Origin: a virus
Lineage: Duplodnaviria > Caudoviricetes
Length of the DNA stretch: 64,000 nucleotides
Direction: 5' to 3' (one strand)
Virus record (IMG/VR): IMGVR_UViG_3300032227_000508
Coordinates: 926-64,925 of that record
Numbering within the stretch: position 1 is the first letter of the stretch; every line of letters begins with the position of its first letter. The notes under the pieces are model-generated. The model did no database searches. It saw only the letters and a list, made by a program, of their open reading frames with translations, and was not told the DNA's origin. Positions 38,040 to 47,507 of this stretch are shown here, in pieces. Both the position numbers and the translations under genes were made by a program.

Positions 38040-38052
38040 CAAATATAATACA
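38040..38052 (-). promoter_or_regulatory. Promoter TGTATTATATTTG
   Basis: Exact TAnnTTTG plus extension identical to the 45988 promoter. Confidence 0.7.
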
Positions 38053-38078
38053 AAATATTTAATTTAAGAACATAAGTT

Positions 38079-43549: not shown

Positions 43550-44977
43550 TTAAAATGGTGCAATACTTTCATTTGAAAAATCATTTGGTATTGTATTTAA
43601 AACAGATTTTTGGAACAACACCTCAGGTTTAGTAAACTGAAAAAGTTCTTCTTCACTATCAGCAACCCGATTAGTTCGGACATCAACAAATCTGTTTACA
43701 TCTCCCACTTCTCCATCTCTGTTCTTTAAAATAATAAACTTTAACGTGTTATCCATTTGAGCAACAGGCTGATTATTAGATTTAGCATCAACATACTTGT
43801 AGTAATCATCACGATACAATCCAATCACAACAATAGCATCTTGTTCAATGTTACCTGAAGACCTCAAGTCTGCCAACATAGGCTGTCTATTACTTCTTGA
43901 TTCTGCCGACCTATTTAATTGGGCTAAACAAATTATTGGAATACCTAGTTTCCTTGATAATTGTTGTACTTTATTAGAAACCTTTGATACTTGGCTTAAA
44001 TCATCTTGCCCCTTAATCTGATTGTCTGTCATTAATTGTAAGTAATCTATAACAATCATTTCAATCTTATTTTTTCTTACTTCAGCAGTCATCATCATTG
44101 ACAAATAATTAATATCCCTATTGTAAGAATCATAAAAATATATCGGGAGTTTTTTTAGTTCCCTTGCATTAGATTTCTTTATTTTTTGAACATCCTCTTG
44201 GCTAATCCTATTTGCCTTTAGGTCTGAATAGTTATAATCAAAAGCCTCTGATGAGATATATCTATAAATCAACGACTCTTTAGGCATCTCTAATGACAAG
44301 TACAATGCTTTCTTGCCCGACTTGGCACATGATTTAGCAAAATCTAATCCAACAATAGTCTTACCCATCGAAGGTCTTGCCGCAATGATTGACATTCCCT
44401 CTTGCCAACCTCCTAAAGCATAATTTAACTTCCTACTTCCTGTGTCAATCCCACTAAATAATTTATCTGACCCAGCAGATAACTCCATCTTCTCAATTAC
44501 TTCATCATAAATTTGGTCTATTCCATAAACCTCTTTTGAAGCAGAAGAATCAACTACATCTACCAACCTATCTTCTATCATTGATGTCATCGTAGACACC
44601 TCTATGCCATCCTCAATGGATGAAACCAAGTTAAGTGCTAAATCGTATATCTTTCTTTTGTTCTCAATCTCCTTTAATTCAAAGGCGACTTGCATACAAT
44701 CAATCGTACGATTAGGTAGGATGCTTAATAGTTTAGAAGAATTAATTCCTAATTCATTTTCCTTTGATTTAAGGACTCTAAATACATCGAAGCGGGAGAA
44801 TGTACTATTTAACATAGATAATTCAACCATCGTTAAGTATGACACCTTATTTAAAGCATCAGTAAATGTTTCAGATGTAATTATTTTATTCACATCTATT
44901 ACAGAATGTGGATGCTCTAACAGATATGAAATCATATCCCCCTCTAACATCACATCAATTACTTTATTGTTTTTCAT
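43550..44977 (-). CDS. dnaB: Replicative DNA helicase
   Basis: IIAARPSMGKT, LSLEM, IVIDYLQLM, LAQLNR, DLRSSGNIEQDA, KNRDG. Confidence 0.95.
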   Translation of the reverse strand: MKNNKVIDVMLEGDMISYLLEHPHSVIDVNKIITSETFTDALNKVSYLTMVELSMLNSTFSRFDVFRVLKSKENELGINSSKLLSILPNRTIDCMQVAFELKEIENKRKIYDLALNLVSSIEDGIEVSTMTSMIEDRLVDVVDSSASKEVYGIDQIYDEVIEKMELSAGSDKLFSGIDTGSRKLNYALGGWQEGMSIIAARPSMGKTIVGLDFAKSCAKSGKKALYLSLEMPKESLIYRYISSEAFDYNYSDLKANRISQEDVQKIKKSNARELKKLPIYFYDSYNRDINYLSMMMTAEVRKNKIEMIVIDYLQLMTDNQIKGQDDLSQVSKVSNKVQQLSRKLGIPIICLAQLNRSAESRSNRQPMLADLRSSGNIEQDAIVVIGLYRDDYYKYVDAKSNNQPVAQMDNTLKFIILKNRDGEVGDVNRFVDVRTNRVADSEEELFQFTKPEVLFQKSVLNTIPNDFSNESIAPF

Positions 44978-44979
44978 AT

Positions 44980-45687
44980 TTAATATTTATCAGGAATTGC
45001 TATTTCGTAATTTGTGAAACCGGAAGATGCCATTTTTTCTTTTTCTTTATCTTCTAGTGTTATTGGTATTTCATCTTCCCACACCCGATGCATTAAATAT
45101 CTTTCGGGATCTTTTCTAAAGGTGGGATCCGGTCTTAAAGTTTTGTATTTAGGGATTGCTAATAAGACTAAATCTTTTTCAGATTCCTTTAGCTTTATCC
45201 ATTTAGATTTAGCTTTCTCTTTGCCAACCTTTTTCCCATATAACTCCCAAAATTCTTCAAACCTTTCGGTTATAATATTTACTTTATTATTCTCTTTATT
45301 ATTAACTTTATTATTATGGTGATACCCCGCTATCACCCCCCCTGCTACCCCGCTATCACCCCCCTGATACCCCGCTATCACCCCCCCCTCTTCTAAATCA
45401 TCCTTCATTAGCTTTAAATCAGCTAAACGTATCGTTCTGCTACCAATTTCGATATCATTTTTTGAGACATTTTCTCTAGTAATAATCTTCTTACTTTCTA
45501 ACTGCTTAATCAAGGTTCTGACATAAGCATTTGATACTCCCAATGTCTCTGAAATGTATTGATTAGATGCAAAGCAATAACCTGTTTTATTAGACAAACT
45601 AATAAAGACTCCAATCAATAATTTTTCGCTTGAAGACAATTCCTTATTCGATAGTATCTCGCTAGGAACGACTGCGTACCACCTCAT
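44980..45687 (-). CDS. Phage replication initiator (lambda O-like: N-terminal HTH, iteron-encoded linker, C-terminal FEEFW domain)
   Basis: YAVVPSEIL...EKLLIG...GYCFASNQY; linker GGVIAGYQGGDSGVAGGVIAGYH then NNK-rich; FEEFWELYGKKVGKEKA...ERYL; adjacent to dnaB. Confidence 0.85.
   Translation of the reverse strand: MRWYAVVPSEILSNKELSSSEKLLIGVFISLSNKTGYCFASNQYISETLGVSNAYVRTLIKQLESKKIITRENVSKNDIEIGSRTIRLADLKLMKDDLEEGGVIAGYQGGDSGVAGGVIAGYHHNNKVNNKENNKVNIITERFEEFWELYGKKVGKEKAKSKWIKLKESEKDLVLLAIPKYKTLRPDPTFRKDPERYLMHRVWEDEIPITLEDKEKEKMASSGFTNYEIAIPDKY
45318..45388 (-). promoter_or_regulatory. Origin iterons inside initiator gene: 3 x TGATAGCGGGGTA(T/G)CA separated by G6-G7, followed by AT-rich tract
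   Basis: 16-mers at 45320-35, 45343-58, 45365-80; AT-rich DNA follows on the - strand; same layout as the lambda ori within O. Confidence 0.85.
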
Positions 45688-45882
45688 TTATACTTCCTTT
45701 AATTTGGTTTCTAAAAACTTTATTTCTGAAATTAATCCTTCGATTATGGATAATATTTTATCAAAACATTCCATTTCTGGCATTGCATATTGCATCACAA
45801 ACTCATATTCATTAAGTTCTATTTGATAGTTAATCAACTTCAACCTAACTACTGCTAAATGACACTCTAATTCTAAATCCAT
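45688..45882 (-). CDS. Small acidic hypothetical protein, first gene of replication operon
   Basis: 64 aa, abuts initiator start. Confidence 0.6.
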   Translation of the reverse strand: MDLELECHLAVVRLKLINYQIELNEYEFVMQYAMPEMECFDKILSIIEGLISEIKFLETKLKEV

Positions 45883-45887
45883 TGTCG

Positions 45888-45974
45888 AAAAAAAACCCCA
45901 AGACCTTCGAGGGAAAGAATCTTGGGGATAGGACTTTATCCTATTGTTTATTATCTAATCCCTCAATCAGATAA
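45888..45974 (-). ncRNA. Structured leader RNA (three hairpins ending in an intrinsic terminator): attenuator or sRNA candidate
   Basis: Hairpins at 45951-74, 45928-44 and 45896-927 plus U8; lies between promoter 45988 and ATG 45882. Confidence 0.55.
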
Positions 45975-45987
45975 CTAACACAACACG

Positions 45988-46000
45988 CAAATATAATACA
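45988..46000 (-). promoter_or_regulatory. Promoter TGTATTATATTTG
   Basis: Identical 13-mer to the 38040 promoter. Confidence 0.7.
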
Positions 46001-46021
46001 ATTTATTTATTCTTAAACATA

Positions 46022-47507
46022 TTATATTCTTTCACAAGATATTACCCTACTTATGGGAATCCCTATAGTTTTAAATGATTCATTAAAATCTTTAAAAACC
46101 AAAGTTCTAAAATCTTTTGTAGCCAAAACATACGTCCCCTCTATTTCTTCTATCATTTCTCCTAACTCATACACAACCTTAAATCGATATGGTTTCTGAT
46201 ATTTTTTCGCCACCGATAAGATTTTGGTATTGATATTGTGATTTTTTACAGCGTATATATGTTTAATATTTCCGCTTTCTAGTACTACACTCCCAATTAC
46301 TTTTTGATTCTTTTCCATTTTATTTATTTTATTTAATAAGCCTTAAACATACCTACGCATATCTGTCTGAAATTTAATCTGTTCTGAATAGTTTCTTCTT
46401 ATAATTTCTATTCTCTTCAAAATTGCACTTGCAAATTCTTCAAGCTCATCCATTTCTATATCAAAAAAAATAGACTTATCATCATCAAATTGAGAATGTA
46501 AATCTCCATGAAAAATAGTATCATTCCCCATTGACTCATTCTGAAGCTTATATAATACCAAATCATGGGTCTCTCCATATATCTTAATTCTAGATACATT
46601 CTTAATGTCCTCCAATGTCATATTATCGCTGATATGAAGATTTTTTATTGGCAATTTCATTTCCATTTTAGTTTTAATTTAAATTTTAGTTAAAAATAAA
46701 TCATAAGGGTAGTCAGTTCCGTGCCACCCATACAATTTTCCTGTTAAATCCCAAGCATACGACTCGTAAGCCCCTCTAATTTCAATCCATCCGACAATCT
46801 GATGCCCATCTTTTGCTTTTACATTAATTCCCCCGATGATTATGTCGAATTCTTTTCTTGTAATTACTTTGTAATTACTTGTTTGCATTAACCCCCAATT
46901 AAAATCTACCATCCTCTTTCTGATTTAGATAGGATTAGCCTTCCGTGTGACGTATACTTCGCATTACTATCCATATTATTAATATAGATGTCTTCGCTCG
47001 TTATTATCCCAAACTCTTCTTTAATCAAAGAAACATCGACTTTTTCTTCATGCTTATATACTTTGTTTACATAAATAATTATTCCACAAGACAACAAAAT
47101 ACAAATAGCAATTGCCTCAACAATATGTTTTTTACTTTTCATTTTTATTTTGATTTGGTTTAACATACAACAATAATAAAATACGCAACTGCGACAAAAA
47201 TTAAACATAAAACAAACTCCAGTACTTCCCCTGTAGTTATTTGCTTCTTACTCATTTACTTTAAAGAGATTTCTAATTTGACTGACTGCTCTGTGCCATC
47301 TTCGGCATCTTCTACTACAACTGATAATGTCCCCTCGTAAGAGAATTGTATATCGTATGTTCGCCCACCTAATTCAAATGTGTACCAAACATTCCCAAAA
47401 TCGTACGGAGACCAATTGATTTCCGTACGTTCTTCTACCTTATTAACTTTTGCCGATATCTTGGCAACCATTGTAAATGGATTTACATCAACTATAATTC
47501 TCATCAT
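46022..47507 (-). CDS. Five hypothetical ORFs (46022-46318, 46343-46666, 46679-46912, 46906-47142 with TM/Cys N-terminus, 47256-47507)
   Basis: Co-oriented ORFs; no recognisable catalytic motif. Confidence 0.6.

Follow-up and report, generated by a model that had tools for sequence, protein, structure and literature searches.

The window analysed here, a stretch of 64,000 nt, is almost all of a 64,925-bp IMG/VR virus record that has direct terminal repeats and a G+C content of ~34%. Between positions 43,550 and 46,318 of the window, genes on the minus strand are arranged around a gap of about 139-142 nt, which separates a 98-aa ORF from a 64-aa ORF and which holds the leader described below (Table 1). 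The first-pass annotation had placed this leader before an operon encoding an initiator and DnaB. This is the case (HTH_36/phrog_270 and a DnaB-like helicase), with the small ORF as the first gene; a 93-aa ORF and a PD-(D/E)XK exonuclease come after the helicase. In all relatives the small ORF ends with a stop codon that touches or overlaps the initiator ATG, an arrangement suggestive of translational coupling between the two genes.

Table 1 Features of the leader and its neighbouring genes (window coordinates).
Feature	Position	Strand	Remarks
Upstream gene, 98 aa, all-beta	46022..46318	-	Ends 26 nt before the promoter box
Extended promoter motif TTGTATTATATTTG	45988-46001	-	Read from sequence
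Promoter as quoted in the first-pass annotation, TGTATTATATTTG	46000-45988	-	Read from sequence
-7 promoter box TATATTTG	45988..45995	-	Fits the Bacteroidota consensus TAnnTTTG; read from sequence
Predicted transcription start	45982..45983	-	Inferred: G of the box at -5 gives +1 at 45983
Leader RNA, ~96 nt	45983 (predicted start) to 45888 (U-run end)	-	Three hairpins and U-run
Hairpin 1, 9-10 bp	45950..45975	-	From sequence and fold
Hairpin 1 arms and loop	TTATCTGAT 45974-45966, loop TGAGGG 45965-45960, ATTAGATAA 45959-45951	-	One G-U pair
Loop-1 kissing strand UUGAGGG	45960..45966	-	Core UGAGGG 45965-45960; partner 45913-45908
Hairpin 2, 6 bp	45928..45944	-	ATAGGA 45944-45939, loop TAAAG, TCCTAT 45933-45928
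Hairpin 3 (terminator stem)	45896..45927	-	CCCCAAGA 45927-45920, 16 nt, TCTTGGGG 45903-45896
Hairpin 3 outer stem, CCCCAAGA/UCUUGGGG		-	GC-rich
Hairpin 3 inner stem, 3 bp	45917-45915 with 45907-45905; loop 45914-45908	-	
Loop-3 kissing strand CCCUCGA	45907..45913	-	
Terminator U8	45888..45895	-	Followed by CGACA and the ATG at 45882
Small ORF, 64 aa	45688..45882	-	ATG 5 nt past the U-run
Replication initiator, HTH_36, phrog_270	44980..45687	-	Holds three iterons
DnaB-like replicative helicase	43550..44977	-	

The proteins encoded on either side of the leader are themselves conserved. The 64-aa protein is a conserved two-helix hairpin (AlphaFold pLDDT 95.9) with an invariant A-x-P-E/D-M turn. 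A role like that of ColE1 Rop, as a binder of the kissing complex, was considered for it and rejected: there is no Pfam match, the Foldseek matches were all generic helical hairpins (E ≥ 0.2), none of them Rop, and related leaders found before HNH genes (see below) come without the ORF. On the other side, all-beta homologues of 90-106 aa, ending in ..TIGIP.MNI.., always precede the leader. The model of the 98-aa member is of moderate quality (pLDDT 72) and has weak similarity to SH3/Sm/Tudor/bL19-like barrels (E ≥ 0.02); because of this likeness, the modelled protein is a candidate RNA-binding partner, as a lead only. Inside the initiator gene lie three direct repeats of 22-23 bp, or iterons, TGATACCCCGCTATCACCCCCCC (45320-45387), adjoined by an AT-rich repeat with a 12-bp period (45273-45315). 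By their sequence, these repeats together resemble an iteron origin of the lambda type, ~500 nt 3′ of the leader.

Every letter and coordinate that the first-pass annotation had given for the promoter, the three hairpins, the U8 run and the 5-nt gap to the ATG proved correct on re-reading. The gap between the two ORFs folds with a minimum free energy of -39 kcal/mol (z = -3.66), and none of 200 shuffles was as low. Hairpin 3 is a GC-rich hairpin directly followed by a U-run, the site is also detected by a simple terminator scan, and its predicted anatomy is that of a strong intrinsic terminator. In loop 1, GAGGGA (45964-45959) is the reverse complement of TCCCTC in the terminator loop (45914-45909), and the energy of the kissing duplex is -11.1 kcal/mol. 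A descriptor for a terminator whose loop complements the loop of an upstream hairpin matched only the leader in the 64-kb window; shuffled windows gave 0-2 matches. No second copy of the leader was found in the phage genome with either a covariance model or the descriptor scan, and the promoter motif is the only part that is repeated. The 5′ leader segment UGUUG (45979-45983) can also pair with CGACA (45883-45887) before the AUG, on the minus strand. As a family feature, this closing helix was rejected: it is present only in the subclade of the window and in some clade B members (UGUAC/GUACA in L020), and is absent from the L013 type, L017, L019 and L027.

Homologues were sought with the initiator and then with a small-ORF alignment against viral contigs, together with a metagenome scan and two DNA-pattern scans, among which the matches to the loose clade A pattern were mostly due to chance. 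In this way 32 distinct homologues were gathered, on contigs of uncultured phages and of metagenomes. With a covariance model based on 14 sequences, a single element was found at each locus for which sequence 5′ of the small ORF is available, such that every small-ORF homologue with upstream DNA has the RNA; in 18/18 related phage records the leader occurs once per genome. All 32 homologues retain the promoter box, three hairpins, U-run and ATG, and the distance from the U-run to the ATG is 0-7 nt in each of them.

Covariation, by which the first-pass annotation had proposed that the structure be judged, supports all helices as well as the loop-loop pairing. Across the 32 homologues, 92% of pair cells are occupied by standard pairs, compared with 69.6% after shuffling (0/500 shuffles reach 92%), and 24 pairs are changed on both sides. 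The signal is lost when the partners are slid by 1-3 columns. All 12 aligned pairs of hairpin 1 change on both sides, with 95.8% of cells paired. Hairpin 2 is the most sequence-conserved part within each clade, and three of its pairs covary between clades; its loop is a GNAA tetraloop in clade B and UAAAG in the window. The shape of hairpin 3 is constant, with an outer GC-rich stem, a small internal loop, an inner stem of 3-4 bp that covaries, and a loop of ~8 nt containing the kissing strand. The paired figure of 78% understates the outer stem of hairpin 3, because this stem is two columns out of register for clade A in the covariance-model alignment; single-sequence folds show the stem in every member folded. 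Hairpin 3 alone has a folding energy of -16 to -19 kcal/mol in 10 representative members, and full-length folds of 21 members place it before the U-run in all 21. G-U pairs occur often, and in 32/32 homologues the fold of the sense strand is better than that of the antisense strand. These results indicate that the structure belongs to the RNA that is read toward the replication genes.

The complementarity between loop 1 and the terminator loop, also reported by the first-pass annotation, is intact in all 32 homologues, in which loop 1, like loop 3, is ~8 nt long. Four of the six pairs of this kissing helix covary (UA/AU/CG, CG/GC/AU and so on), and the loop letters differ wholly between clades (UGAGGG vs GUUGCG). 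Five loop-pair types were observed, namely UGAGGG:CCCUCG, UGAGGG:CCCUCA, GUUGCG:CGCAAC, GUUGAG:CUCAAC and GUCGCG:CGCGAC, with duplex energies between -8.5 and -11.7 kcal/mol. As judged from the aligned sequences, a kissing helix of 6-8 bp is maintained through compensatory changes, although such covariation does not separate a kiss within one RNA molecule from a kiss between two. Since relatives keep this pairing with different letters, we regard the leader as a real RNA element.

Changes between close relatives are distributed unevenly. The near-identical phages L013 and L015 differ at 14 positions in the 120 nt of the element, compared with 19 positions in 600 nt of flanking DNA (Fisher p = 3e-4). 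All 14 changes are confined to loop 1 and hairpin 3 and leave the pairing intact. From its sequence pattern, this hot spot could reflect either diversifying selection or module exchange. When L013 is compared with L018, the element is instead more conserved than its flanks. In one further variant (L120:5299-5403(-)), a 10-nt deletion removes most of loop 3 and the inner stem. What remains is a simple terminator hairpin in which just 5 nt are complementary to loop 1; this could be a degenerate copy or an assembly error.

The promoter is of a kind that points to the host. The consensus of the -7 element in Bacteroidota is TAnnTTTG, and in Flavobacterium johnsoniae the G of this element lies at -5, with transcription starting 4-5 nt past it (PMC6847099). 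From this spacing, transcription of the leader is predicted to start at ~45983 and the terminated RNA to be ~96 nt long. The box is invariant in 32/32 homologues and lies at a fixed distance from hairpin 1. A sigma-70 type promoter was rejected, as the -7 box is of the Bacteroidota type. No clear TTTG was seen upstream of TATATTTG as a -33 element; in Flavobacterium this element is reported to be weak (PMC6847099). The leader leaves no room for another promoter before the small ORF, so that transcription of the replication genes must pass the terminator. The extended motif recurs once in the window (38040-38059, minus strand), 22 nt before the ATG of a 117-aa ORF (38022-37669), with no structured leader behind the box; on the basis of the shared motif, the two promoters may be a co-regulated pair.

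Several other intergenic TAnnTTTG boxes in the phage lie ~20-35 nt 5′ of an ATG with no structure between. A Shine-Dalgarno-like core precedes 3/58 phage genes, the same as background, and A-rich sequence lies upstream of the start codons, in line with the description of Bacteroidia (PMC6847099). Together, the TAnnTTTG boxes, the absence of Shine-Dalgarno sequences and the A-rich upstream regions suggest a Bacteroidota host. Translation initiation in Bacteroidia relies on local structure rather than on Shine-Dalgarno motifs (PMC6847099), and given these genome-wide features the lack of a ribosome-binding site in the 5 nt before the small-ORF ATG is normal for such a host. Twenty public sequencing runs were listed as sharing words with the phage; all are recorded as DNA metagenomes and most are labelled freshwater, lake or aquatic. 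The phage is an uncultured freshwater phage, probably with a host in the Bacteroidota. A blastn search of the GenBank phage collection gave no matches, and a genome-contig scan with the small-ORF alignment identified no host genome: its only match, a Balneolaceae MAG contig (L304), was a false positive, situated within unrelated coding sequence and without a match to the RNA.

Two further promoter features were seen in clade B. At several loci (L020:1330-1360, L012:95-125, L013:1340-1365 and others), a dyad symmetry encloses the -7 box together with the predicted start, as in GTACATTT-G-AAATGTAC or TTAGATTT-GA-AAATCTAA. By its symmetry this looks like an operator for a DNA-binding regulator; no such dyad was seen at the box in the clade of the window. 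In addition, the clade B terminator U-run UUAUUUUUG (e.g. L018:1474-1481) itself matches TAnnTTTG, 2-4 nt before the ATG; this match may have arisen by chance, the sequence being T-rich, or may mark the promoter of a leaderless mRNA.

Leaders of this design are not confined to the replication operon. The contig of one relative carries a second, very different leader before a NUMOD4/HNH endonuclease gene (L052:655-765(-) = L224), composed of a TAnnTTTG box, hairpins and a terminator followed by the ATG, with the loops GUGAGAG and CUCUCAC. The two leaders on this contig therefore have different loop pairs. At the same position on a sister contig (L227-L229, ~480-600), loop 1 is CUUCUCAC and loop 3 is GUGAGAAG, with the strands swapped between the loops. 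These HNH-cassette paralogues add two loop-pair types to the five listed above, and none is accompanied by a 64-aa ORF. In a third relative (L226), no leader precedes the HNH gene. The presence of a similar leader before HNH genes indicates that the cassette is modular and independent of both the initiator and the 64-aa ORF, and suggests a general limiter or timer of expression that is not specific to the initiator.

Known RNA classes and the usual partners of such leaders were then compared with the element. Rfam 15 gave no match in the whole window at gathering thresholds, guanidine-IV, cobalamin and C4 antisense RNA included; for the leader region at E ≤ 10, the best weak matches were atoC (E = 0.24; 20.4 bits against a threshold of 50) and NsiR1 (E = 4.4; 13.2 against 39). 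The leader is therefore an uncatalogued RNA element, absent from Rfam and not found in the literature searched. No conserved TAnnTTTG box was found on the antisense strand at the 21 loci examined. Countertranscript-driven attenuation of the pT181/pIP501 type is not supported, on this ground and because the antisense strand folds worse in 32/32 homologues. Within ±1.5 kb, neither loop 1 nor loop 3 has another conserved target, and each is the other's only conserved partner. No alternative (antiterminator) helix is conserved in truncated transcripts, and hardly any unpaired position is conserved between clades; together with the missing antisense promoter, these results speak against a riboswitch.

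These observations bear on the original reading of the leader as a transcription attenuator switched by a protein, an antisense RNA or a ligand, or as a stand-alone sRNA. What stands is a conserved kissing-loop RNA with its promoter, terminator and adjacent ATG in 32/32 homologues. Two of the proposed switches do not fare as well: a small-molecule ligand is unlikely, given the free covariation of the loop letters and the lack of conserved unpaired positions, and an antisense RNA is unsupported, since no promoter box is conserved on the antisense strand. The candidates that remain are a protein and the terminated RNA itself, which would act in trans. The proposal of a stand-alone sRNA does not exclude that of a leader, since the terminated leader would be that sRNA.

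With moderate confidence, we favor a cis-acting structured leader that works as a gate, in which the kissing contact sets the behavior of the terminator. Such a leader probably controls how much transcription reaches the replication genes, and the terminated RNA of ~96 nt would be a by-product, possibly one with an action in trans. The order of promoter, terminator and ATG calls for such a role as a gate. RNA polymerase would start at the leader's own Bacteroidota-type promoter or arrive from upstream, and would then either stop at the U-run, releasing the ~96-nt RNA, or read on. Read-through would cover the small ORF, the initiator and DnaB, and with them the likely origin formed by the iterons of the initiator gene. 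Contact between the two loops would decide, or at least influence, the partition between these outcomes, and it may do so in either of two directions. It could join the distant halves of the long terminator hairpin and so promote termination; as the outer stem encloses ~20-24 nt and the inner stem has only 3 bp, the kiss may be needed for fast folding of the terminator. Alternatively, the kiss could form first and hold loop 3 before the outer stem closes, thereby opposing termination as in guanidine-IV. In both cases, any occupant of loop 1 or loop 3, whether a phage or host protein or accumulated terminated RNA, would shift the balance. By a rough geometric estimate, the kiss could form within one molecule that also has its terminator complete, albeit with strain. 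Two points argue against the gate. The lack of a conserved antiterminator helix means that no switching mechanism is visible in the sequence itself, and the terminator looks strong, so that this promoter would give little transcription of the essential replication genes unless some antitermination factor intervened.

The same pairing could also take place between molecules. The terminated RNA would then be a sense-encoded, self-recognising regulator acting in trans, which kisses the nascent leaders transcribed from other copies of the genome, such that loop 1 of each molecule meets loop 3 of the other. Termination frequency would be set by template number or time, making the leader a copy-number or timing sensor that would serve both replication genes and mobile nuclease cassettes. 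Its logic would be close to that of phage P4 CI RNA or of plasmid copy-control RNAs, but with the regulator on the sense strand. We consider both the trans regulator and its role as a sensor possible but fairly unlikely. They are kept alive by the L013/L015 hot spot, whose changes with preserved pairing resemble the specificity determinants of RNA-RNA control systems. They are also consistent with the different loop pairs of the two leaders on one contig, with the absence of other conserved partners for the loops, and with the absence of an antisense promoter, which leaves the sense RNA as the only candidate RNA effector. However, recombination followed by compensation explains the hot spot equally well, the L013/L018 comparison runs in the opposite direction, and our own estimate allows the kiss to form within one molecule. 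It is also conceivable, although unlikely, that nothing is switched: hairpin 3 would end upstream transcription with a fixed leak, and the kissing fold would stabilise the 5′ end of the mRNA or sRNA or tune translation of the small ORF. This would account for the lack of a conserved alternative helix. The ATG at a constant 0-7 nt past the U-run suggests a link to translation initiation, which is structure-dependent in Bacteroidia (PMC6847099), in a phage without Shine-Dalgarno sequences. Against such a constitutive element, a conserved promoter directly before a strong terminator would be wasteful unless the ratio is used or the short RNA is functional, and a kissing pair kept through several independent compensatory changes exceeds what is needed to stabilise a 5′ hairpin.

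A stand-alone sRNA with targets elsewhere, in host or phage mRNAs, would make the position before the replication genes incidental. The leader does have its own promoter and terminator, its length of ~96 nt is typical of sRNAs, and a similar cassette precedes unrelated HNH genes. We nevertheless consider this very unlikely, as the exposed loops pair mutually and offer no single conserved seed, their letters vary between relatives, the leader is in every case directly followed by an ATG and the genes behind it lack a separate promoter, and no second conserved complementary site lies within ±1.5 kb. A small-molecule riboswitch of the kissing-loop type, similar to guanidine-IV or cobalamin, is highly improbable: although a first-hairpin loop that kisses the terminator loop matches the guanidine-IV architecture (PMC11611296), there is no Rfam match at gathering thresholds, the nucleotides of a would-be pocket covary freely with hardly any unpaired position conserved between clades, and the downstream genes serve replication or encode nucleases and are not related to a metabolite. 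Finally, loops 1 and 3 form an inverted repeat in DNA, next to replication genes, as might be expected of an operator, an origin or a single-strand initiation signal. Such a DNA-level element is hardly credible, given that G-U pairs make the fold strand-specific (the sense strand being better in all homologues), that the element is located between a conserved promoter box and a U-run, and that the iterons lie elsewhere (45320-45387).

Several known systems share parts of this arrangement. In lambdoid phages, the PR′-6S RNA-tR′ unit is released by Q, and tR1, before cII-O-P, is released by N. As in these units, the promoter is closely followed by a terminator, a short RNA is the default product and the operon requires read-through, and in lambda, too, a terminator precedes the replication genes O and P. 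In contrast, the lambda units use protein antiterminators at DNA or nut sites and no loop-loop contact, and no Q-like or N-like protein was identified in the phage described here. In phage P4 CI RNA (seqA/seqC) and P1/P7 c4, a short leader RNA is complementary to the same sense transcript and causes premature termination or an expression block. These RNAs are processed from longer transcripts and pair with linear target sites, and their complementary pairs differ between related phages. The present leader is likewise a short leader RNA of a replication operon with complementarity to its own transcript and with pairs that vary among related phages, but its partners are two apical loops within one primary transcript of ~96 nt that ends at its own terminator, and it has no Rfam C4 match. 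In the cobalamin riboswitch, the L5-L13 kissing loop joins the sensor domain to an expression-platform hairpin; the large conserved ligand-binding core of that riboswitch is absent from the phage leader.

An architectural likeness is seen with the guanidine-IV (mepA motif) riboswitch, in which the loop of a 5′ hairpin kisses the loop of the terminator hairpin and decides read-through, with the kiss competing with the complete terminator stem (PMC11611296). The phage leader shares the pairing of the first-hairpin loop with the terminator loop. It differs in that guanidine-IV has conserved guanidine-binding loop letters, whereas the phage loops covary with no apparent ligand pocket, and in its extra middle hairpin, its lack of an Rfam match and the replication and nuclease genes downstream. 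In the rep mRNAs of IncI-alpha, IncB and IncL/M plasmids (ColIb-P9 repZ), a leader loop pairs with a distant sequence before the start and controls initiator supply (PMC4705826). Here too, a loop pairs with a distal sequence in an initiator leader, and a small upstream ORF appears to be coupled to the initiator. The plasmid system, however, acts on translation, needs an antisense Inc RNA as well as a Shine-Dalgarno sequence and GUG start, and has no terminator, while the partner in the phage leader is the terminator loop, and neither a Shine-Dalgarno sequence to unmask nor an antisense promoter for an Inc RNA was found.

If the kiss does set terminator efficiency, the leader would be a compact, ligand-free RNA gate made of a promoter, two complementary loops and a terminator. 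Loop pairs that can be re-coded would then give orthogonal transcription gates for synthetic biology in Bacteroidota. Should the leader instead act in trans, paired loop mutations would re-code its specificity and provide orthogonal channels between related phages and between the cassettes of one phage. If the gate is real, Bacteroidota phages employ it for their replication-initiating genes, and relatives also for homing-endonuclease cassettes. Since read-through crosses the iteron origin within the initiator gene, the gate may control how this likely origin is transcribed, and the leader may time origin activation in addition to protein supply. In Bacteroidota, which do without Shine-Dalgarno control and whose RNA regulation is poorly known, a widespread class of phage leaders would thus be a useful entry point.
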